Under the pieces are notes generated by a model. The model was given only the letters and a program-made list of their open reading frames with translations. It searched no databases and was not told where the DNA came from. Shown one piece after another: positions 48,506-64,000 of a DNA stretch of 64,000 bases. The stretch spans positions 1-64,000 of IMG/VR virus record IMGVR_UViG_3300018878_000133; one strand, written 5' to 3'. A program made the translations under genes and the position numbers. Origin of the DNA: a virus (taxonomy: Duplodnaviria > Heunggongvirae > Uroviricota > Caudoviricetes). The number at the start of each line of letters is the position of its first letter. Positions within the stretch are counted from its first letter, which is position 1.

Positions 48506-48644
48506 GCGGGATTGGCGGAATAGGCAGACGCAAGGGACTTGCTTGATGACATAGTGTCTATCTAGTAGGGGCAGTACCTACATCAAGTACCAAAAATCCC
48601 TCGGTAGTGATACCGTATCGGTTCAAGTCCGATATCCCGCACCA
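48506..48644 (+). tRNA. tRNA-Leu-like gene with ~52-nt insertion in the anticodon loop
   Basis: Acceptor GCGGGAT/ATCCCGC + ACCA; Leu-type D-arm TGGCGGAATAGGCAGACGC; long variable hairpin CGGTAGTGATACCG; T-arm ATCGG-TTCAAGT-CCGAT. Anticodon stem AGGGA/TCCCT encloses 59 nt, including a 7-bp hairpin CTTGATG...CATCAAG. Confidence 0.5.
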
Positions 48645-48965: not shown

Positions 48966-49117
48966 GGCGCGTTGGTCAAGCGGTTAAGACACCGCCCTTT
49001 CGTTAGATTAGCCAAAAGGTAAGGCAGGCCACTAGAGATAGAGGTTATGTGTCAGTTCGAGTCTGACATCTAGCACCAACGGCGGTATCACGGGTTCGAT
49101 TCCCGTACGCGTCACCA
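48966..49117 (+). tRNA. tRNA-Glu-like gene (anticodon-loop CTTTC..AC) interrupted by a 77-nt tRNA-shaped insertion
   Basis: Outer gene GGCGCGT-TG-GTCAAGCGGTTAAGAC-A-CCGCC-[..]-GGCGG-TATCA-CGGGT-TCGATTC-CCGTA-CGCGTCA-CCA. Insert 49012-49088 has its own acceptor GTTAGAT/ATCTAGC, D-arm GCC-AAAAGGTAA-GGC, T-arm GTCAG-TTCGAGT-CTGAC and terminal ACCA. Confidence 0.5.
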
Positions 49118-52812: not shown

Positions 52813-52910
52813 CACGATATAGCTTATGTGGTAAAGCATCCGAATCCCAGGAAAAAGACCAAGATTGATTTCTTGAAGATAAGTAGGTTCAAGTCCTGCT
52901 GTCGTGTCCA
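52813..52910 (+). ncRNA. over-long tRNA-like element (~97 nt) without a canonical anticodon arm
   Basis: Acceptor CACGATA/TGTCGTG + T-CCA, D-arm GCTT-ATGTGGT-AAGC, T-arm GTAGG-TTCAAGT-CCTGC. The 44-nt central region forms CAAGA-TTGATT-TCTTG instead of a 5+7+5 anticodon arm. Confidence 0.35.
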
Positions 52911-56168: not shown

Positions 56169-56313
56169 GGCTCCGTAGTTCAGATGGTTAGAACGCCTGC
56201 CTGTGCTTTATTAGTTTAATAGTAAAACACTCTTATAAAGAGATGCTAGTGCAAGACTAGTATAAGGCTCCACACGCAGGAGGTCGTCGGTTCGATCCCG
56301 ATCGGAGTCGCCA
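56169..56313 (+). tRNA. tRNA (anticodon-loop remnants CTGTG..AC or CT..CACAC: His/Val-like) interrupted by a 68-nt tRNA-shaped insertion
   Basis: Outer gene GGCTCCG-TA-GTTC-AGATGGTTA-GAAC-G-CCTGC-[75-nt loop]-GCAGG-AGGTC-GTCGG-TTCGATC-CCGAT-CGGAGTC-G-CCA. Insert carries acceptor-like CTTTAT/ATAAGG, D-arm-like GTTT-AATAGTA-AAAC and T-arm-like CTAGT-GCAAG-ACTAG. Confidence 0.5.
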
Positions 56314-56665: not shown

Positions 56666-56705
56666 CCTAGTTAGTAATGCAGCTGCTACTAAGTTACTAA
56701 CTAGG
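56666..56705 (+). promoter_or_regulatory. large imperfect palindrome overlapping RBS/start region of the GIY-YIG gene
   Basis: CCTAGTTAGTAA-tGCAGCTGCtactaag-TTACTAACTAGG; 12-bp perfect arms around the palindromic GCAGCTGC core. Confidence 0.5.
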
Positions 56706-56713
56706 TGATTCTT

Positions 56714-57385
56714 ATGGCTTATATTTATAAAATTACAAATAATCTTAATGGCAAGGCTTACATAGGTCAAACACTTTATTCATTAGAAAAAAGGTTTGCA
56801 GAGCATTTAAAAGACAGCGCTAGAACTGGTCACAGTAAAAGACCTCTGTACAAAGCTATGTTAAAGTATGGTTATTCAGCTTTTACTATAGAAGTTGTTG
56901 AAGAACTAGCTGATGATCCAGAGCTTTTAAATGACCGAGAAATTTATTGGATTACGAAATTTCATACTTTTTGTAAAGATCCGCTTGGTCCTGGTTATAA
57001 CGCTACTTTGGGTGGCGGAAGCAAGATGCTTTATGATAGACGCGCGATTATTCAGTATTTACGTAATAATAATTGTGTTAAGGATGCTGCAGAAGTTTTT
57101 AAGTGCACAAAAGACACAATTATCGATATTGCTAAAGCTGCTAATATTCAAGTTAAGTCTAGCCCGGATTTAGTAAAAGAGCTTTATAGTAAACCAATAA
57201 ATATTTATGATTTAAAAAATAATTTAATTCATAGTGTTACTAATTCTTATGAAGCTGAGCAGTGGATTCGAGATAGTGGTATTTCTGATGCTAAAGGCGG
57301 CGCAATTAGAGCTCACATTCTAGAGGTTTGCAAAGGTAAACGAAAAACTGCTTATGGCTTTATATGGAGATACTTGAAAGATTAA
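56714..57385 (+). CDS. GIY-YIG homing endonuclease (free-standing, seg-like)
   Basis: 'YIYKITNNLNGKAYIGQT...RFAEH' GIY-YIG catalytic motif at the N-terminus and a basic C-terminal DNA-binding region. Track ORF starts at GTG 56705; the ATG at 56714 is preferred. Confidence 0.8.
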   Translation: MAYIYKITNNLNGKAYIGQTLYSLEKRFAEHLKDSARTGHSKRPLYKAMLKYGYSAFTIEVVEELADDPELLNDREIYWITKFHTFCKDPLGPGYNATLGGGSKMLYDRRAIIQYLRNNNCVKDAAEVFKCTKDTIIDIAKAANIQVKSSPDLVKELYSKPINIYDLKNNLIHSVTNSYEAEQWIRDSGISDAKGGAIRAHILEVCKGKRKTAYGFIWRYLKD

Positions 57386-57613: not shown

Positions 57614-57689
57614 GGGCCCATAGCTCAATTGGGAGAGCACTAGTCCTGCAAACTAGAGGTCGCGAGTTCGACCCTCGCTGGGTCCACCA
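57614..57689 (+). tRNA. tRNA-Ala (anticodon TGC)
   Basis: GGGCCCA-TA-GCTC-AATTGGGA-GAGC-A-CTAGT-CCTGCAA-ACTAG-AGGTC-GCGAG-TTCGACC-CTCGC-TGGGTCC-A-CCA. Confidence 0.85.
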
Positions 57690-57750: not shown

Positions 57751-58450
57751 AATATCAACAATTTGTACCTTGAAAGATAAATATAATTACTAACTCAGTG
57801 CTAAACACAAGACACGCTTCTTGTGCTGAGAATGCAACTAAGCGAAAGCTGAACAATGTGTGATGGTAACATAAGAGGGATACCTCGGAAACCGCGCTAC
57901 TTATATATGCGAGTATATGAGTTAAGGGTAGGACCCGAAACATATGTTGTATGTGCTGATGTTATAGCAAGTAATGGTAGGAAGAGTCTCGTGAGAGTAA
58001 TAGAAAGCTTGGTTAATAGCTGAGCCGAATCCAAGTTAGGGTTTAGTTGGTGACTGTATTACACCTTGGAAATGCCAATAATCTCATTTGTCGTGAACCA
58101 TAGAAATGTGGGTATAAGAGATTCAAGTAACCTCCTAGTAGCCGAAGACAATTAACAAAGAATTAATGCTAGTATATAATTAGGAATACTGATATTAATT
58201 TTTTCTGAATAGACGGTGAGGGGTGCAGGTAATCAATCCTGTCATAGTTTATGTAGTCCAGGGCTTGGCCGTTAACCAAGTACCCAGATTTCGTGGCAAG
58301 AAGTTAGGGGTCGCTCCCCGAAGCTCAGACTTGTCATCTATGTGACCGAATGTACTTGAATATAACAAGTGGTAAGGCGAAGGCCTAGGAATGTATTATA
58401 TTTATCTTTGAATGTATAAGGTGTACCTCCTTTGTTTATTTTGCAAGGAT
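57751..58450 (+). ncRNA. candidate long non-coding RNA (promoter-to-terminator unit without ORF)
   Basis: ~700 nt, GC noticeably higher than flanking DNA, bounded by the TTGTATAAT promoter and a strong intrinsic terminator. No plus-strand ORF >=60 aa. Confidence 0.35.
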
Positions 58451-58492
58451 TTTTTTTAAGAAAGTTACTTAGATATAAGTAACTTTCTTTTT
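58451..58492 (+). terminator. rho-independent terminator
   Basis: AAGAAAGTTACTTA-gata-TAAGTAACTTTCTT perfect 14-bp hairpin followed by T8. Confidence 0.8.
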
Positions 58493-58579: not shown

Positions 58580-59131
58580 ATGAAAAAACCATTAGTTGTT
58601 AATTTAACAGGAGCTCCAGGTGCTGGAAAAAGCACTGGTGCAGCAACTATTTTTGCAGAGCTTAAAAAAGCTGGTGTTAATGCAGAACTTGTAACAGAAT
58701 TTGCTAAAGATAAGACCTGGGAGCATAATATTATGGCTCTAGGTTGTCAAGAATATGTGTTTGGTAAACAGTCTTATAGATTACGTAGATGCCGAGATGA
58801 TGTCGATGTGATTGTGACTGATAGCCCGCTTCCTCTTAGTATTATTTATAATACTAATCCTGCAATAACTGAGTCTTATCCAAGGTTAGTCATGGATGTT
58901 TATAATACATATGAAAATATTAATTTCTTTATTAACAGAGTTAAACCTTACAACCCTAAAGGCCGAAATCAGACAGAAGAAGAAAGTGATCGTATAAGTG
59001 TCCGCATTAAAGATTTATATAAAGGTCTTGGTATTGATTATTTTGAAATTAACGGCGATAATGAAGGTTATGACTATGCAGTTAAGACTGTATTAAGCAT
59101 ACTAGCAGGAGGTATAAAATATGAGTACTAA
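58580..59131 (+). CDS. P-loop NTPase (NadR/AAA_28-like kinase fold)
   Basis: Walker A 'LTGAPGAGKSTGAA'; Walker-B-like 'VDVIVTDSPL'; RBS GGGAGAA 7 nt upstream of the ATG at 58580. The track ORF begins earlier at 58541. Confidence 0.55.
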   Translation: MKKPLVVNLTGAPGAGKSTGAATIFAELKKAGVNAELVTEFAKDKTWEHNIMALGCQEYVFGKQSYRLRRCRDDVDVIVTDSPLPLSIIYNTNPAITESYPRLVMDVYNTYENINFFINRVKPYNPKGRNQTEEESDRISVRIKDLYKGLGIDYFEINGDNEGYDYAVKTVLSILAGGIKYEY

Positions 59132-59975
59132 AGATGCACTTGGTGATAGAATGAAAGAATTCTATGAAAATAGGAGTAAACATTATCTACCTAGACGAGT
59201 TCCTGTAATCATTAGACTTGACGGCAAAGCTTTCCACACCTTCACTAAAGGTCTTAAGAGGCCTTATGACGAGATTTTCCACAATACTATGAATGCGACT
59301 ATGAAGTATCTCTGTGAGAATATCCAGGGTTGTAAGCTTGGTTATACACAGTCAGACGAAATCACTCTTCTTCTCACAGACTATGACACTCTTGATACCG
59401 ATGCTTGGTTTGGTTATAATGTGCAGAAAATGTGCAGCGTGTCAGCAAGCATGGCAACAATGGTTTTCAATAAGTATCTTAGAGAATTAATTGATAATTA
59501 TTTACAGTCTGATGTATGGGTAAACCATTATTGGGAAGAAGATGTTGAGAAATATGCTAATACATTAAAGAAGGCTATTGACAATGGTGCAATGTTTGAT
59601 TCTCGCTGTTTTAACATTCCTAAAGAAGAAGTTACCAACTGCTTCATCTGGCGTCAGCAGGATGCTACTCGCAACGCAATTCAGATGCTTGGTCAGTGCA
59701 ACTTCTCTCATAAGGAACTACACGGTAAGTCTTGCAATGACATTCAAGATATGTTAATGACTCAGAGAGGTATCAATTTTAATGATATGCCTACTGAGTT
59801 TAAACGTGGTGTCTGCTGTAATCGTGTAGAAAAAGAAGATATTTGTATTGATTTTAAAACAAAAGAAGAGACTCGCTGTATGAGAAGTGAATGGGTAATC
59901 GATAAAGAAATTCCCATTTTTACTCAAGATAGATACTACATTGAACGGTGGGTTTACTCAGAAGGAGATAAATAA
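59121..59975 (+). CDS. Thg1-like protein (tRNA-His guanylyltransferase / 3'-5' nucleotidyltransferase family)
   Basis: 'VPVIIRLDGKAFHTFTKGL..PYDE.F...M' and 'GYTQSDEITLLL' match the Thg1 palm-domain signatures (V.RIDG..FH.F...F.KP.D; GESDEYSF). Confidence 0.7.
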   Translation: MSTKDALGDRMKEFYENRSKHYLPRRVPVIIRLDGKAFHTFTKGLKRPYDEIFHNTMNATMKYLCENIQGCKLGYTQSDEITLLLTDYDTLDTDAWFGYNVQKMCSVSASMATMVFNKYLRELIDNYLQSDVWVNHYWEEDVEKYANTLKKAIDNGAMFDSRCFNIPKEEVTNCFIWRQQDATRNAIQMLGQCNFSHKELHGKSCNDIQDMLMTQRGINFNDMPTEFKRGVCCNRVEKEDICIDFKTKEETRCMRSEWVIDKEIPIFTQDRYYIERWVYSEGDK

Positions 59976-60767
59976 ATGCCTAAGCTTTTTGTTGTTTCTG
60001 ATATTCACAGTTTCTTAGAACCACTTAAAAATGCTTTAGACAGAGCAGGTTTTGACCCTAATAACGAAGAACACTGGCTGATTTCGTGCGGCGATTGCTT
60101 TGATAGGGGTCCTAATAGTATTGAATTGTTGCACTATTTAATGTCGCTTGAGCGAAAGATTCTAGTAAAAGGTAATCATGACCTACTTTTTGACGATCTT
60201 TGCGCAAGATGTTTTCCATATAGCCACGATAAGTCTAATGGCACTGTAAGAACTGTTCAAGACCTCGGTGGAAGTCCTCTTCCGGCGGATTTTGCTAAGT
60301 GCTGTGATACAGCTTTGAATAAAACGGCAGCGTATCGCGACCTACTTGTAAACTATTTTGAAACTGAAAAGTATATTTTTGTTCATAGTTGGATTCCTAC
60401 TATTACTCATTATGATAAAGGTGCTAGTAAGCCTTGGCACCAGGTTGGAAAATACTACGAATACAATGAGAACTGGCGTAATGCTTCCGAGGTAGAGTGG
60501 GAAGAAGCTATGTGGGGTAATCCTTTCTGGAAAGCACAAGACGGTATGAACAAAACCGGTAAGACAATCGTATTCGGACATTGGCATTGTTCTTTAGGTC
60601 ATTTATGCGATAGTCAAGGTGAGCTATCAGAGTTTGGTGATGATGCCAAGTGGGATCCGTACTTTAACGAATCTCAAGGAATCATCGGCATTGATCGCTG
60701 TACTGCACATACTGGTGAAGTTAACGTACTAGTTTTAGATGATAATTTTATTGGAGGCGATAATTAA
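59976..60767 (+). CDS. calcineurin-like metallophosphoesterase
   Basis: 'VVSDIHS', 'CGDCFDRGPNS', 'VKGNHDLLF', 'GHWH' match MPP motifs I-V (DxH, GDxxDRG, GNHD/E, GH). Confidence 0.75.
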   Translation: MPKLFVVSDIHSFLEPLKNALDRAGFDPNNEEHWLISCGDCFDRGPNSIELLHYLMSLERKILVKGNHDLLFDDLCARCFPYSHDKSNGTVRTVQDLGGSPLPADFAKCCDTALNKTAAYRDLLVNYFETEKYIFVHSWIPTITHYDKGASKPWHQVGKYYEYNENWRNASEVEWEEAMWGNPFWKAQDGMNKTGKTIVFGHWHCSLGHLCDSQGELSEFGDDAKWDPYFNESQGIIGIDRCTAHTGEVNVLVLDDNFIGGDN

Positions 60768-61101
60768 CATGGTTGCTTTTAGTAAAGAAGTTTTTATCGA
60801 GACTTTAAATAAGATTAAAGACGGCTATAAACGCCGTTCAAAGTTTGAAAAAGCTGTAACTGAAGTTTGTGATTCGTTTTTTATTTGTAATGTAGGGCAG
60901 GAGTGGCTAGACCAGCTAATAAAAGTTCTTGAGTTCGGCATGAATGATTTGCCTAATAGAAAATATGGTTCAGTAATTAGTTGGTGGCTTTGGGAAAATG
61001 TTGATAAGAAGATCTGGTGTGAAGCTGATGGAGTAAAATATGAAAAAGACCTCACTACTCCTGAAGCTTTATACGATTATTTAGTAGAAAAAGCTGGTTA
61101 A
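60739..61101 (+). CDS. hypothetical protein
   Basis: 120-aa ORF overlapping the upstream gene's end; followed by a terminator. Confidence 0.4.
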   Translation: MIILLEAIINMVAFSKEVFIETLNKIKDGYKRRSKFEKAVTEVCDSFFICNVGQEWLDQLIKVLEFGMNDLPNRKYGSVISWWLWENVDKKIWCEADGVKYEKDLTTPEALYDYLVEKAG

Positions 61102-61127
61102 TTTTTATAACCAGCTTTATTTTTTCA
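61092..61127 (+). terminator. rho-independent terminator
   Basis: AGCTGGTTA-atttt-TATAACCAGCT followed by TTATTTTTT. Confidence 0.7.
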
Positions 61128-61174
61128 TTCTTTATAGTGTATTATATTATAGAATAACTTATTGAGGTGTTAGT

Positions 61175-61615
61175 ATGGCAAACAAATATGCTTGGTCGCG
61201 AAGAAGTGACGATGAAATTTGGCGGGGTGGACCGTGTGACTCGATACGAGAGTGTGTAGAGGAAGCTCAATGGGAAGAATATAAGTTAGAAGATACTTTC
61301 GCTCTTGGTCTTATTGAAAACTATGAGGTCAATTATGACTTTGCTCAAGATATTGTCGAAAGACTTTGTGAAGATGCTTGGGATGAAGTCGGTGAAGCTT
61401 CTGACGGTTGGCTTGACAGCGCTAAAAGAGAACAGTTAGATCTTTTAAATGAACGAATCGCACCTATTGTTAAAGAATGGCTGAAAGAGATAGGAGAACA
61501 GCCTAGCTTTTATAAGGTGTTGCCTTTTGAAGAGTGTACTCTCAAGGAAGCCTTAGATATTCATAATGAAAAAGTAGCAAACATGTCAAGAGGCGGCAAA
61601 ATAGAAAATCAATAA
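61175..61615 (+). CDS. hypothetical acidic protein
   Basis: 146-aa ORF with RBS GAGGTG. Confidence 0.45.
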   Translation: MANKYAWSRRSDDEIWRGGPCDSIRECVEEAQWEEYKLEDTFALGLIENYEVNYDFAQDIVERLCEDAWDEVGEASDGWLDSAKREQLDLLNERIAPIVKEWLKEIGEQPSFYKVLPFEECTLKEALDIHNEKVANMSRGGKIENQ

Positions 61616-61656
61616 TACATAATAAAATAAATTAAATATAAGGAAGGTATTTAAAA

Positions 61657-61932
61657 ATGTTTATTCTTAGTGGTGGTAAAGGTATTGGTAAAACTAAAAC
61701 TTTGATTGAGCGAGTAAAAGCTGAAGATGGTATTCTTATTTGTGAGGATACGACTGCTATGCGAGAGCGTGCATATGGTTATGGTATTACTGGACTTAAT
61801 TTAATGTCTTATGACGAATTGTATGCGTGCCCGATTGAGAGCTATGATAAACCTATTTACATTCATGATATTAATAAGTTTATTAAATGTGGTTTCCATG
61901 AAGTTAAAGGATATAGTGTTTGTAATGAATAA
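61657..61932 (+). CDS. small protein with Walker-A-like 'SGGKGIGKT'
   Basis: 91-aa ORF; RBS AAGGAAGG. Confidence 0.4.
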   Translation: MFILSGGKGIGKTKTLIERVKAEDGILICEDTTAMRERAYGYGITGLNLMSYDELYACPIESYDKPIYIHDINKFIKCGFHEVKGYSVCNE

Positions 61933-62155
61933 TAAAAATTATTTATATGCAGTGCGTGATGCTTCGACAGGTAAGCTCGTAAGAGATATTACCAACCCTG
62001 GACATAAGTTTTGGGAAAAGCGTGGAAATTGCCAGAAAGCAATTGATGAGTATAATGATAAATTATCTGGTAATGGTTCTATGCGTTATTTTAGAACTAA
62101 ATACGAAGGCCCATTGGAGCTTGTTACTTTTGAGCTTGTTGAAGTAAAAGAATAA
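61925..62155 (+). CDS. hypothetical protein (start ATG 61925 preferred over overlapping 61811 start)
   Basis: Track ORF 61811..62155 overlaps the previous gene. The internal ATG ('MNNKNYLYAV...') abuts the upstream stop (TAATGAATAA). Confidence 0.4.
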   Translation: MNNKNYLYAVRDASTGKLVRDITNPGHKFWEKRGNCQKAIDEYNDKLSGNGSMRYFRTKYEGPLELVTFELVEVKE

Positions 62156-62164
62156 TGGTTTTAA

Positions 62165-62202
62165 AGAAAGTTGGTTAATTATGCCAACTTTCTTTTTATT
62201 TT
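62165..62202 (+). terminator. rho-independent terminator
   Basis: AAAGTTGGTTAATTATGCCAACTTT hairpin followed by CTTTTTATTTT. Confidence 0.7.
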
Positions 62203-62245
62203 GTTGTATTATATATTATTGATATAAAAATTGGAGGACTTTATT

Positions 62246-62410
62246 ATGAAAAAGGAAGCATCTATTGATAGAAGAATGTTTAAAAAATCACCTGAAGAAC
62301 TTGAACTCTACATGTATTTCAAAAAACGTGGCTTCAAGCTTGAGAACAAAAAGGGAAAGGGCTCTTATGAGCGCCGTCCTAAGCATATTTGGAGGTTTTT
62401 AAATGACTGA
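62246..62410 (+). CDS. small basic protein (54 aa), translationally coupled to downstream NTase
   Basis: RBS TTGGAGG 7 nt upstream; stop TGA overlaps the next ATG (ATGACTGA). Confidence 0.4.
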   Translation: MKKEASIDRRMFKKSPEELELYMYFKKRGFKLENKKGKGSYERRPKHIWRFLND

Positions 62411-63197
62411 AAGAGAACTTAAGATTTGTGAAAGACTAAAGCACGATTATAATTATGTGAAAAATCAAGGATATGAAGTTTTTGGCATATTTTTGCAAGG
62501 CTCACAGAATTATCAGTTGGATTATGAAGGCAGTGATATCGATACAAAGTGCATTGTTCTGCCTTCCGCTGAAGACCTTATTTTAAATAAGCAGCCTACA
62601 AGTACTACTCTTATATTAGAAGACAATTCACACATTGATTTAAAAGATATTAGACTTATGTGGCAATGTTTTAAGAAGCAGAACGTAAACTACCTTGAGA
62701 TTTTATTTACTGAGTTCTTTTACGTACCGCGCGACTACTTTTATTTTTGGCTCGAGATGCTTAGAATTAATGAGGATATCGCACACATTGATAATTATGC
62801 TGCTGTAAATTGTATCGTCGGTATGATCTTAGAGAAGAACGCTGCTTTGTGTCATCCTTATCCTACGTTAAAAGACAAGATTGATAAGTATGGATATGAT
62901 AATAAACAGCTTCACCATATTATTAGATGTAGAGAATTTCTTGACAGATACATTGATGGTGTATTATACAAAGATTGTCTAATTCCATACGACCGTGAAT
63001 ACTTAATTAGTGTAAAAGCTAATTATAGATATGATTTAGATCAAGCAAAAGCTATTGCAAAAGAAGCTGTTGACTATGCTAAAGCTAGAAAGCAGGCTTA
63101 TATAGATACTAATGAACGTAAGGTAGCTGAAGATACTTGTAACAGAATGGACTGTATTTTAGTAGATATCCTAACTAAATACTGGACGGAGAATTAA
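62403..63197 (+). CDS. Pol-beta-superfamily nucleotidyltransferase with helical C-terminal domain
   Basis: 'FGIFLQGSQNYQLDYEGSDIDTKCIV' matches the GS-x(9-13)-[DE]h[DE]h NTase active-site signature. Confidence 0.6.
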   Translation: MTERELKICERLKHDYNYVKNQGYEVFGIFLQGSQNYQLDYEGSDIDTKCIVLPSAEDLILNKQPTSTTLILEDNSHIDLKDIRLMWQCFKKQNVNYLEILFTEFFYVPRDYFYFWLEMLRINEDIAHIDNYAAVNCIVGMILEKNAALCHPYPTLKDKIDKYGYDNKQLHHIIRCREFLDRYIDGVLYKDCLIPYDREYLISVKANYRYDLDQAKAIAKEAVDYAKARKQAYIDTNERKVAEDTCNRMDCILVDILTKYWTEN

Positions 63198-63198
63198 T

Positions 63199-63465
63199 AT
63201 GAATTGTTGTGTATGTGGTAGAGCTGGTAGTGATGTTGAAGAACATAAAAATACTTTAACAAATCAAATGGCTCCATATTGTTTAGATTGCTTATGGAGT
63301 GGTCGCGAGCCTTATAAAGATTTAGTTGATTTTGGTTGGGACTTTGGCTGGTTTAATAAAACATATCAGCAAAAAGTGATTATCCCAACGTTAACTTTTA
63401 ATAATAAAACTGTACAGCAATTTAATGAAGAAGTAAGAAAGAAACGAGCTGAAAAATATAATTAA
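63199..63465 (+). CDS. small Cys-containing protein
   Basis: 'MNCCVCGRAGS...CLDCLW' putative metal-binding; 88 aa. Confidence 0.4.
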   Translation: MNCCVCGRAGSDVEEHKNTLTNQMAPYCLDCLWSGREPYKDLVDFGWDFGWFNKTYQQKVIIPTLTFNNKTVQQFNEEVRKKRAEKYN

Positions 63466-63475
63466 GGAGGTACAT

Positions 63476-64000
63476 ATGTCTGTTTTTGTAATGATGGTAG
63501 GTTTACCTGGAAGTGGTAAAAGTACTTTTATTGAACGTAATTATCCTAATTATAGCGTACATAGTAGCGATGCTATTAGAGAAGAACTGTCTGGCGATGT
63601 AAATAACCAAAATATTAATAAGCAGGTGTTTGAACTCCTGCACAAGCGCGTAAAAGAAGACCTTTCTGACGGAAAGAACGTAGTATATGATGCAACTAAT
63701 ATCAGTTGGAAGCGTCGTAAGGCATTTTTACAAGAATTAACTAATATAGATTGTTTTAAGCGATGTATTATTATGGCTACTCCTTTTGAATTATGCGTTC
63801 AAAGAAATCAGGAGCGATCTCGTGTGGTGCCTTACCATGTACTTGAACGTATGTATAAGAGCTTTGATATCCCATGGTACAATGAAGGTTGGAATATGAT
63901 TGAAATTGCTTATGCAAATGCAGAAGCTATGAGCAAATATGGCGATTGGAGCCATTTTGTTACTGACCATTTCGATTTTAATCAGGAAAGTAAATGGCAT
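63476..64000 (+). CDS. polynucleotide-kinase-like P-loop kinase (T4 Pnk kinase-domain-like), 3'-truncated by window
   Basis: RBS AAGGAGG. 'MMVGLPGSGKSTFIE' Walker A; '...SRVVPYHVLERMYKSF' parallels T4 Pnk '...KAVPIDVLRSMYKSM'. No stop before nt 64000. Confidence 0.6.
   Translation, partial: MSVFVMMVGLPGSGKSTFIERNYPNYSVHSSDAIREELSGDVNNQNINKQVFELLHKRVKEDLSDGKNVVYDATNISWKRRKAFLQELTNIDCFKRCIIMATPFELCVQRNQERSRVVPYHVLERMYKSFDIPWYNEGWNMIEIAYANAEAMSKYGDWSHFVTDHFDFNQESKWH

Follow-up and report, generated by a model that had tools for sequence, protein, structure and literature searches.

A gene cluster of a large phage resembling a toolkit for mending RNA ends

The DNA analyzed here (the window, 64,000 nucleotides) comes from a large gut or rumen phage and carries, after its tRNA genes, a cluster of genes for which homology together with conserved synteny supports a role in the mending of RNA ends. 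With a probability of roughly 0.7, we read the cluster as a phage-encoded end-repair set for RNA, most likely tRNA, arranged in two tightly packed gene groups. The first group (59121-61101) combines a bacterial-type Thg1-like protein with a metallophosphoesterase of the lambda-phosphatase/ApaH/Pnkp type. The second, which spans 62246 to about 64420, combines a nucleotidyltransferase (NTase) of RlaP-like type with a bifunctional protein joining a Pnkp-type 5'-OH kinase to a CCA-enzyme-type HD phosphohydrolase. All five ORFs named in the original prediction lie on the plus strand at the starts given there, and the observation as a whole was confirmed; families were found for the ORFs by profile and homolog comparison. 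Its interpretation held in part: the repair families stood, while the membership of the kinase at 58580, the T4-like architecture of the last kinase and a ligase immediately downstream did not.

The cluster had been described as consecutive genes directly after the tRNA island. It does lie 3' of the island, whose last tRNA occupies 57614-57689, but a ROOL RNA (57770..58406, plus strand, 637 nt; Rfam RF03087, 286.2 bits against a gathering threshold of 99.1, E 3.5e-65, full model length) and, 3' of it, a terminator-like hairpin (58458-58489) are located in between; the ROOL RNA is reported as context and not claimed as part of the module. The shared strand and the gene order were likewise borne out, but not strict adjacency, as six small ORFs intervene between the named genes (60769-61101, 61175-61615, 61657-61932, 61898-62155, 62246-62410, and 63199-63465), and two terminator-like hairpins lie within the cluster (61090-61118 and 62163-62195). 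Packing is nevertheless tight at several points: the AAA_28 and Thg1 ORFs overlap by 11 nt, the Thg1 and phosphoesterase genes abut, and a small basic ORF of 54 aa (62246..62410, plus strand) overlaps the start of the NTase by 8 nt. This called gene had no match in family searches and has homologs immediately 5' of the NTase in the related phage loci L009, L017, L019, and L025. Two other small called genes on the plus strand are also conserved. One, following the phosphoesterase (60769..61101, 110 aa; called on the parent contig), ends at the hairpin 61090-61118, has syntenic homologs in L017, L019, and L025, and matched nothing in Pfam or PHROG; the other, a Cys-rich ORF (CxxC...CxxC; 63199..63465, 88 aa) between NTase and kinase, keeps its synteny in L017 and L019 and had no match in family searches, Pfam included.

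Judged by its family and homolog matches, the gene at 59121..59975 (plus strand, 284 aa) encodes a bona fide Thg1-like protein (TLP) of the bacterial type, by family a 3'-5' nucleotidyltransferase. The earlier call, made from motifs, was right: the product matched Pfam Thg1 at 2.4e-31 (108.8 bits, cutoff 29.2), Thg1C at 9e-5, and phrog_4717 at 1.9e-95, and the Bacillus thuringiensis TLP (BtTLP; PDB 4kgk, PMC3701042) aligned over the whole length at 1.6e-68, a match in which the catalytic motifs are kept and RxDG and the SDE carboxylate motif line up. It differs from BtTLP by an insertion of ~33 aa (residues 124-156) and by a gene context adjoining end-healing genes. TLPs are described in PMC4820378 as repairing tRNAs truncated at the 5' end by 3'-5' addition of nucleotides dictated by a template. 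The reaction for which Thg1 is named is the addition of the position -1 nucleotide to tRNA-His, and 163 phage records label homologs as tRNA-His guanylyltransferase. The enzyme could accordingly mature the phage tRNA-His by adding the position -1 nucleotide needed by histidyl-tRNA synthetase, a role proposed because the interrupted tRNA-His(GUG) gene 2.8 kb 5' of Thg1 does not encode this extra 5' nucleotide (position -1 is T). We consider this unlikely. The similarity to fungal Thg1 reaches only 2.3e-7, far from that to BtTLP, and inspection of the sequence found no HINNLYN, the tRNA-His anticodon-recognition motif of true Thg1. TLPs add Watson-Crick templated nucleotides, and opposite G73, the discriminator of this tRNA, that would mean C-1 instead of G-1. 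In relatives, moreover, the genes that accompany Thg1 are those of RNA ligase, phosphoesterase, and kinase/HD, and tRNA-His is not among them.

The abutting gene (59976..60767, plus strand, 263 aa) encodes a PPP-family binuclear metallophosphoesterase (Pfam Metallophos 5.4e-14), in line with the earlier call. Its family profile matched lambda phosphatase (1.9e-10), ApaH (3.8e-10), and 4j6o (1.1e-4), which we take to be the phosphatase domain of Clostridium thermocellum Pnkp (CthPnkp), placing the product by sequence in the lambda phosphatase/ApaH/Pnkp-phosphatase clade of PPP-type enzymes. The motifs DxH, GDxxDR, GNH, and GHxH are invariant in the family, and the gene is found 3' of Thg1 in 13 related loci. 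Phrog_246 is matched in its C-terminal (phosphatase) part by this protein (1.6e-30) and in its N-terminal part by the kinase encoded at 63476. These matches make the product a candidate end-healing enzyme for 2',3'-cyclic-phosphate or 3'-phosphate ends; lambda protein phosphatase and ApaH are as close to it as any RNA-healing enzyme, which counts against the repair reading.

In the second group, the product of 62403..63197 (plus strand, 264 aa) appears to be a divergent RlaP-like Pol-beta nucleotidyltransferase. The GS...DxD signature on which the NTase had been recognized is present: GS(33-34), D45xD47, and D79/D82 are invariant across 40 homologs. The protein itself matched Pfam RlaP below threshold (E 0.024, 14.8 bits against a cutoff of 23), whereas 27 of the 40 relatives matched this family and no second family recurs among them. 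A protein of Lysinibacillus phage LC76P1 that clears the Pfam RlaP cutoff, and whose gene adjoins that of a ligase, is a homolog (hhalign, 99.9% probability, E 6e-37). The AF2 model (pLDDT 94) joins an NTase domain to a helical one and resembles KNTase and HalB in fold. The missed RlaP cutoff and a weak alignment with T4 NrdC.11 (probability 19.6%) count against the repair reading. RlaP adds one or two NMPs to RNA 3'-OH ends and is required for restoring over-damaged tRNA (PMC12776372), and the same addition of one or two nucleotides at RNA 3'-OH ends is predicted for the phage enzyme.

The last gene starts at 63476 on the plus strand, fills the window to its end (63476..64000) with a polynucleotide 5'-kinase domain, and extends 420 nt further on the parent contig, to about 64420; the whole product is a 314-aa kinase-HD fusion. 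Pfam AAA_33 was matched at 2.2e-23 by the window part and at 9e-23 by the full protein, and the kinase region matched the NCBIfam bacterial Pnkp at 6.2e-24. It had been called T4-Pnk-like, and it does appear to be a polynucleotide kinase, closest in the PDB to the CthPnkp kinase domain (4gp7, 2.2e-17) and more weakly related to T4 Pnk (1ly1, 2e-3); the T4 architecture is not retained, as an HD phosphohydrolase domain (residues ~181-272, C-terminal; Pfam HD 2.4e-7) replaces the DxDxT phosphatase. With the motif LHDxGKP and a best match to the HD region of class II tRNA nucleotidyltransferases (3wfo-3wfs, 5e-3), this domain points to a Pnkp-type polynucleotide kinase joined to a CCA-enzyme-type HD phosphohydrolase. 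Full-length homologs occur in Tsamsa-like Bacillus phages, where their genes overlap an Rnl1 ligase gene.

The P-loop protein encoded upstream of Thg1 (58580..59131, plus strand, 183 aa; Pfam AAA_28 3.2e-13) had been counted as a repair component, which its profile and fold speak against. It matched phrog_2107 'thymidylate kinase' (9.4e-16), and its AF2 model (pLDDT 86.8) found thymidylate, adenylate, and deoxynucleoside kinases as top Foldseek matches (E 4e-6 to 1e-4), which suggests a kinase acting on small molecules, nucleotides or nucleosides. Its placement relative to Thg1 differs among related loci, and for this reason the gene probably stands outside the module core; more likely it is a nucleotide-metabolism enzyme upstream of the cluster by happenstance. 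Assignment to such a family, which the original prediction had set against its own reading, was found for this component alone. Just 3' of the cluster, the parent contig encodes a dCMP/cytidine deaminase fold, and with nucleotide-metabolism-type genes (the AAA_28 kinase and this deaminase) in the region, co-location alone is weak evidence. Early-region auxiliary genes with no common RNA substrate could thus be grouped incidentally, as a dNMP kinase, a NinI/lambda-type protein phosphatase or Ap4A hydrolase, a generic nucleotidyltransferase, and a P-loop ATPase; in the PDB the phosphoesterase is matched best by lambda Ser/Thr phosphatase and ApaH, and the NTase fold also resembles aminoglycoside nucleotidyltransferases, both of which would fit this as well. 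We consider it very unlikely, as the kinase resembles Pnkp specifically and shares its polypeptide with an HD domain of CCA-enzyme type, we know of no non-RNA substrate for Thg1-family enzymes, and both gene pairs persist across divergent phages and recur beside RNA ligases.

The order Thg1, phosphoesterase, small ORFs, 54-aa ORF, NTase, and kinase/HD recurs in L009, L017, L019, and L025, whose Thg1 proteins are only 62-75% identical to that of this phage, and the grouping therefore goes beyond chance. Related phage contigs retain two pairs, Thg1-phosphoesterase and NTase-kinase/HD; in 10 of 11 related loci with kinase/HD, the NTase lies upstream on the same strand, at 0.7 to 2.6 kb. Neither tblastn with four ligase queries (E<0.01) over the 64-kb window and 9.4 kb downstream nor a Pfam scan of the called genes in the same range found an RNA ligase. 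The absence of a ligase from the window, already remarked, was thereby upheld, the place proposed for a look, immediately downstream, gave none either, and the heal-and-seal pathway is incomplete as seen. Relatives do have one: Rnl, RlaP, and kinase/HD are consecutive genes in LC76P1; in Tsamsa, gp174 (Rnl1) overlaps gp175 (kinase/HD); the IMG/VR loci L026-L032 carry Rnl, a small ORF, NTase, and kinase/HD 3 to 6 kb 5' of Thg1; Rnl lies immediately 5' of a Thg1-like gene (71% identical) in L183; and in L245 Rnl is followed by two ORFs, Thg1 and, further on, Metallophos. Such ligase adjacency is the usual mark of heal-and-seal pathways acting on RNA, and it supports the repair reading. Adjacency to a tRNA island is not conserved, as an Rfam scan of nine related loci left seven in which Thg1 had no tRNA within 8 kb, and this counts against the repair reading.

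Four tRNA genes of the island carry anticodon-loop insertions of 22-77 nt according to ARAGORN with introns allowed: tRNA-Leu(UAA) (48506-48644), tRNA(UCA) (48966-49117), tRNA-Gly(CCC) (52813-52910), and tRNA-His(GUG) (56169-56313, where the Rfam tRNA model scores 50.5 bits). Three of the four are independently matched by the Rfam tRNA model, and the full precursors fold into cloverleafs whose anticodon arm is extended and structured. In Rfam, these sites matched no model of a known ribozyme or group I intron. Group I introns are longer than the insertions could accommodate, so that removal would need protein-based cutting; the toolkit might then process these tRNAs, with cutting followed by healing (kinase, HD, and phosphoesterase) and sealing. 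This seems highly improbable to us: the window yielded neither a splicing endonuclease nor a ligase, the repair genes of relatives occur without tRNA islands nearby, two exact-match scans did not recover the insertions in other phages, their predicted positions are heterogeneous (34/35, 35/36, 37/38), and the ARAGORN intron calls may be artefacts or decayed genes.

Under the preferred reading of RNA end repair, whose mechanism is drawn as a whole from family biochemistry, a host ribonuclease would cut or trim tRNA, leaving 2',3'-cyclic phosphate and 5'-OH ends. Conversion of the 3' end to a 3'-OH would fall to the HD domain, to the metallophosphoesterase, or to the two together, the kinase would make the 5'-phosphate, and the RlaP-like enzyme would restore one or two lost nucleotides at the 3'-OH. 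The Thg1-like enzyme would activate the 5'-phosphate with ATP and, with the 3' strand as template, rebuild the 5' side of the acceptor stem by 3'-5' addition of the lost nucleotides. Breaks in loops would still require a ligase, which adjoins in sister phages and was not found here in the window or the 9.4 kb downstream. The purpose would be counter-defence, with PrrC, VapC, PARIS, or retron effectors as conceivable targets.

This type of system has already been described for jumbo phages (Iyer, Anantharaman, Krishnan, Burroughs, and Aravind 2021, PMC7824862, building on Burroughs and Aravind 2016), and the present cluster is a good new example rather than a new kind. That survey lists PNK, phosphoesterases, RlaP, many tRNAs, and sporadic Thg1 for 5'-end restoration, the same inventory with the same proposed purpose of countering host tRNA attack; there RlaP and the healing enzymes track RNA ligases, whereas here none was found within reach, and its text, as far as read, does not describe the Thg1-phosphoesterase and NTase-kinase/HD pairings or the small conserved ORFs. 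The HD-Pnk of Runella slithyformis (Munir and Shuman 2017, as described in PMC6097658) also unites an HD 2',3'-phosphoesterase and a P-loop 5'-OH polynucleotide kinase in one healing polypeptide, but with the HD domain N-terminal instead of C-terminal. In Runella, Tpt1 and an overlapping ligase ORF accompany the gene, and neither was seen in this phage. The heal-and-seal systems Pnkp/Hen1 of bacteria and Pnk/Rnl1 of T4 share the kinase kinship, and the CthPnkp phosphatase and the phage phosphoesterase fall in one PPP clade; here, however, the kinase and the PPP phosphatase do not form one polypeptide but are encoded 2.7 kb from each other, with no ligase domain, Hen1, or T4-type DxDxT phosphatase. 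The LC76P1 and Tsamsa-like modules have the same order of NTase then kinase/HD (the NTase 36% and the kinase/HD 34% identical to the proteins of this phage) and the same N-terminal kinase and C-terminal HD domain. They differ in that the gene of an ATP-dependent RNA ligase adjoins, whereas those of Thg1 and phosphoesterase do not. The three genes of LC76P1 (Rnl, RlaP, and kinase/HD) are all annotated 'hypothetical', and we know of no experimental study of these modules. The context of the phage TLP gene, beside end-healing genes, suggests a physiological role.

The presence of the putative RNA-repair cluster was confirmed: the five open reading frames named in the original prediction (starting at 58580, 59121, 59976, 62403 and 63476) are real, lie on the plus strand with the claimed starts, and each gave a result in profile searches. 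The window belongs to a phage genome of ~220 kb; the ENA contig ERZ27248370 k141_4000472 carries an identical copy (14,880 of 14,880 bases agree where the two overlap), and no DNA-level match to the cluster was found among isolated phages. The genes form two compact groups, within which starts and stops abut or overlap. The first one consists of the genes for an AAA_28 P-loop protein, a Thg1-like protein, a phosphoesterase and a 110-aa ORF, and is closed by a hairpin at 61090-61118, while the second begins past a hairpin at 62163-62195 and holds a 54-aa ORF, a nucleotidyltransferase (NTase), an 88-aa ORF and a kinase. Six small ORFs without family match and two terminator-like hairpins are interspersed in the cluster.

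The first gene has to be set apart from the others. The AAA_28 protein (58580-59131, plus strand, 3.2e-13), which had been counted as a kinase of the repair toolkit, gave a good model (pLDDT 86.8) with thymidylate, adenylate and deoxynucleoside kinases as structural neighbours, in agreement with phrog_2107 ('thymidylate kinase'), and its gene was present in just five related loci at varying distances, both of which speak against such a role. A chance assembly of genes for nucleotide metabolism and phosphatases would account well for this gene, but it fails for the remaining genes of the cluster.

The second gene (59121-59975, plus strand) had been read as Thg1-like from its motifs, and this identity was upheld by Pfam Thg1 (2.4e-31, 108.8 bits vs. 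a cutoff of 29.2; phrog_4717, 1.9e-95) and by the metal-binding carboxylate motifs RLDGKAFH and QSDEIT, whose counterparts in the alignment are RIDGAHFH and QSDEIS in the Thg1-like protein of Bacillus thuringiensis (BtTLP, 4kgk); the C-terminal Thg1C domain was slightly under its cutoff (23.1 vs. 26.3). BtTLP is also the closest solved structure (1.6e-68), the phage protein carrying an insertion of ~33 residues relative to it, and the other structure matches, i.e., an archaeal Thg1-like protein (TLP; 5e-13) and Thg1 enzymes (1e-10 and 2e-7), were far below. Because the BtTLP match stands so far above those to true Thg1 enzymes, the protein is, on sequence grounds, assigned to the TLP subtype and not to the tRNA-His-specific Thg1. 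HINNLYN, the motif of the latter, is absent from its sequence. We know of no in vivo role of bacterial-type or phage TLPs so far. The TLP subtype repairs 5′-truncated tRNAs by templated 3′-5′ addition (PMC4820378). A mitochondrial-type 5′ editing role was considered and rejected, as all 18 standard phage tRNAs have fully paired acceptor stems, with the exception of the usual initiator 1:72 mismatch; CCA is encoded in 16 of these 18. It is worth considering that the TLP might mature tRNA-His, since an interrupted tRNA-His(GUG) gene (56169-56313, plus strand, 68-nt anticodon-loop insertion) without an encoded G-1 lies 2.8 kb upstream. This gene has T at -1, an encoded CCA and the discriminator G73, and both the absent G-1 and G73 are unusual for bacterial-type tRNA-His. 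However, the assignment to the TLP subtype, the discriminator G73 and the genes that travel with Thg1 all point elsewhere. Exact-pattern scans of IMG/VR for homologous insertion-bearing tRNA-His genes returned nothing, or chance matches only.

The third gene (59976-60767, plus strand; Metallophos, 5.4e-14) encodes a phosphoesterase whose PPP metal-ligand motifs (DxH, GDxxDR, GNH[DE], H, and GHxH) are all invariant in eight homologs. Its family profile matched lambda phosphatase (1g5b, 1.9e-10), ApaH (3.8e-10) and 4j6o (1.1e-4), which bears only the PDB label 'Metallophosphoesterase' and is presumably the phosphatase domain of Clostridium thermocellum Pnkp (CthPnkp). The protein belongs to the PPP family, in the clade of lambda phosphatase, ApaH and the CthPnkp phosphatase. 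It also matched the C-terminal half of phrog_246 (1.6e-30), the N-terminal part of which was matched by the kinase encoded at 63476. As for its activity, the sequence fits an RNA 2′,3′-cyclic phosphodiesterase/3′-phosphatase, a protein phosphatase and an Ap4A hydrolase equally well, and it is the conserved Thg1-adjacent position alone that points to RNA.

The NTase (62403-63197, plus strand) matched phrog_388 ('nucleotidyltransferase', 7.9e-10) and, below threshold, Pfam RlaP (PF10127; 0.024, 14.8 bits vs. a cutoff of 23). RlaP was also matched below threshold by 27 of 40 close homologs (best 2.3e-4), with no other recurring family; the databases hold ~3,450 homologs, of which the 120 listed all lacked a Pfam annotation. 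The motif GS...DxD and D79/D82 are invariant, and the confident AlphaFold model (pLDDT 94) resembles two-domain Pol-beta NTases (kanamycin nucleotidyltransferase, HalB) at a low TM-score, while sequence and profile searches against PDB gave no match. When the NTase family profile was compared by hhalign with gene 00029 of the Lysinibacillus phage LC76P1, which itself lies above the RlaP cutoff (28.3 bits), the probability was 99.9% (E 6e-37, 224 columns). The alignment with T4 NrdC.11, a named RlaP member, was weak and covered the NTase core only (19.6% probability, E 1e-3). The evidence points to an RlaP-like enzyme from a divergent branch that is joined to RlaP via intermediates and missed by the Pfam model. 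RNA 3′-OH ends are known to be extended by one or two NMP by Pseudomonas RlaP (PMC12776372).

The ORF at 63476 (plus strand; AAA_33 kinase, 2.2e-23 within the window) exits the window end, and on the parent contig it encodes a protein of 314 aa with the AAA_33 kinase (residues 5-133) followed by an HD domain (residues 181-272, 2.4e-7). The NCBIfam bacterial Pnkp kinase region (TIGR04075, positions 10-136) was matched at 6.2e-24, at the domain level only (84 bits vs. a whole-protein cutoff of 750). With the motifs GLPGSGKST, SSD and DATN readable, the kinase part matched the CthPnkp kinase domain (4gp7, 2.2e-17) and, more weakly, T4 Pnk (2e-3), and can be placed in the polynucleotide kinase clade. 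The best match of the HD part, which has an LHDxGKP motif, was a weak but specific one (5e-3) to class II tRNA nucleotidyltransferases in their HD region. The label 'T4-Pnk-like' does not hold for this chain, as T4 Pnk joins its kinase to a DxDxT phosphatase, whereas the phage protein has an HD domain instead. Bacterial Pnkp differs as well, combining kinase, PPP phosphatase and ligase in one chain with Hen1 as partner, whereas here the PPP esterase is encoded on its own; neither a ligase domain nor Hen1 was seen among the genes scanned. The protein is similar to Runella HD-Pnk, to our knowledge the only characterised HD-Pnk, in that an HD phosphoesterase and a polynucleotide kinase share one polypeptide. 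The Runella protein is a 2′,3′-phosphoesterase/5′-kinase healing enzyme (PMC6097658), and its domain order is the reverse of that in the phage protein.

The association of these genes was analyzed in 80 IMG/VR loci with Thg1-like proteins 54-76% identical to that of the window, in which homologs of the cluster genes were placed by tblastn. Four loci (L009, L017, L019, and L025) share the order Thg1, phosphoesterase, (110-aa ORF), 54-aa ORF, NTase, (88-aa ORF) and kinase/HD, with the genes being nearly contiguous in L025. In 13 loci a phosphoesterase homolog follows Thg1 on its downstream side within ~2 kb, and the NTase is upstream of kinase/HD on the same strand, 0.7 to 2.6 kb apart, in 10 of 11. 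RNA ligases (Rnl) are recurrent neighbours: in a sister group (L026-L032) Thg1 is preceded, at a distance of 3 to 6 kb, by genes in the order RNA ligase, small ORF, NTase, (ORF) and kinase/HD, in another locus (L183) a 478-aa Rnl is encoded immediately upstream of the Thg1-like gene (71% identical), and in a third arrangement (L245) Rnl is followed by two ORFs, Thg1 and, further on, Metallophos. Among isolates, Rnl, RlaP and kinase/HD are consecutive in LC76P1, where the NTase is thus ligase-adjacent as in the sister group, and the Rnl1 and kinase/HD genes of the Bacillus phage Tsamsa overlap. The cultivable Bacillus phages PK-3 and FADO carry Thg1, the NTase and kinase/HD. That the four core genes (Thg1-like, phosphoesterase, NTase, and kinase/HD) act on broken RNA is argued most strongly by these recurrent ligase neighbours. 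On the 146-kb contig of L245, a Tad8 family gene (PF25189; 7485-7757) is located 2.2 kb upstream of Rnl and Thg1.

A ligase had also been expected just downstream of the cluster, but neither tblastn with four ligase queries nor Pfam searches of the called genes recovered one, beside the NTase or elsewhere, in the window and the 9.4 kb past its end. Ligase scans of IMG/VR gave no match on the contigs of the four loci sharing the gene order described here. The contig of a relative with the same Thg1/phosphoesterase arrangement (L011) carries a ligase (L239) ~90 kb away from its Thg1, so a ligase far from the cluster is plausible for this phage as well. The only notable gene in the downstream stretch encodes a 128-aa cREC 'cyclic-phosphate processing receiver' protein (PF20274, 2.8e-17; 19208-19594 of L171), ~8 kb beyond the kinase; the cREC domain has been proposed to act on 2′,3′-cyclic or ADP-ribose cyclic phosphates. 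The third gene past kinase/HD, ~1.8 kb beyond the window (15814-16212 of L001), has a cytidine/dCMP deaminase fold (PF00383, 4.2e-9; HAE, PCxxC) and may act in nucleotide metabolism or as a tRNA/RNA deaminase. The original prediction largely stands; the exceptions are its first kinase, the label 'T4-Pnk-like' and the adjacent ligase.

Three more tRNA genes of the island, all on the plus strand, are interrupted in the anticodon loop, i.e., tRNA-Leu(UAA) (48506-48644, 52-nt insertion), an opal-suppressor-like tRNA(UCA) (48966-49117, 77 nt) and tRNA-Gly(CCC) (52813-52910, 22 nt). Together with tRNA-His, these four were missed by default ARAGORN, and three were matched by the Rfam tRNA model. Their precursors fold into cloverleaves with an extended and structured anticodon arm, and the insertions (22-77 nt) are too short to be group I introns. 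Splicing of the phage's own four insertion-bearing tRNAs by the healing enzymes is an attractive but unlikely explanation: neither a splicing endonuclease nor a ligase was found in the window, and relatives carry the repair genes without tRNA islands nearby. A full-length ROOL RNA (57770-58406, plus strand; Rfam RF03087, 286 bits, E 3.5e-65) separates the last tRNA from the repair genes, and a terminator-like hairpin (58458-58489) comes after it. ROOL has been described beside phage tRNA islands before (PMC12286853), and a conserved association with the cluster was rejected, ROOL being found in 0 of 82 Thg1 loci (nhmmer) and 0 of 9 close relatives (Rfam). Directly upstream of the island, a weak Y RNA-like match (YrlA, RF02553; 47391-47510, plus strand; 39 bits, below the gathering threshold of 69) would, if real, be a further element related to RNA quality control. 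Within the island, there are also a DUF3800-XI RNA motif (RF02975; 55322-55368, plus strand; 40.1 bits vs. a gathering threshold of 37.8) and, between tRNA-Thr and tRNA-Ala, a GIY-YIG homing-endonuclease-like ORF (56705-57385, plus strand; 223-226 aa), and several related loci have similar ORFs close to their repair genes.

Based on the biochemistry of the families involved, 2′,3′-cyclic phosphate ends would be opened and 3′-phosphates stripped by the HD domain, the PPP esterase or both, the kinase would phosphorylate 5′-OH ends, the RlaP-like enzyme could restore one or two 3′ nucleotides (PMC12776372), the TLP would activate the 5′-phosphate and refill the acceptor stem on its 5′ strand with the 3′ strand as template, and loop breaks would be sealed by a ligase where one exists. 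A counter-defence purpose may be proposed by analogy with the T4 paradigm and with the jumbo-phage survey of Iyer et al. (PMC7824862), which already contains every component as well as the overall concept. As these components are known and the same NTase and kinase/HD pair is seen beside ligases in unstudied isolate phages, the cluster adds an example to a described kind and is not a new system. In the literature searched, the conserved pair of Thg1 and PPP esterase, the kinase-then-HD domain order, the RlaP-like clade outside Pfam recognition, the conserved small ORFs within the module and the apparent want of an adjacent ligase in this lineage seem to be undescribed.

If the ligase is truly absent from the genome, the cluster would represent a terminus-repair pathway rather than heal-and-seal. 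One reading, which we regard as unlikely, is that the ligase was lost in this lineage, and that the kinase/HD protein and the PPP esterase clean the ends while the Thg1-like and RlaP-like enzymes refill the 5′ and 3′ strands of the acceptor stem, respectively, in a ligase-independent repair directed against host nucleases that clip tRNA termini and not anticodon loops. In a variant of it, the same enzymes would also mature the insertion-bearing phage tRNAs, including the tRNA-His without G-1. If true, such ligase-independent repair would provide the first physiological role for a bacterial-type TLP. The NTase clade and the reverse-order kinase-HD fusion are straightforward biochemical targets. 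More broadly, this phage and dozens of related contigs from gut and rumen phages show a linkage of the Thg1-like gene to genes for RNA ligase, RlaP-like, kinase/HD and phosphoesterase proteins, and this recurrent linkage offers a concrete and testable context for the role of TLPs, namely the repair of tRNA damaged by host defences.
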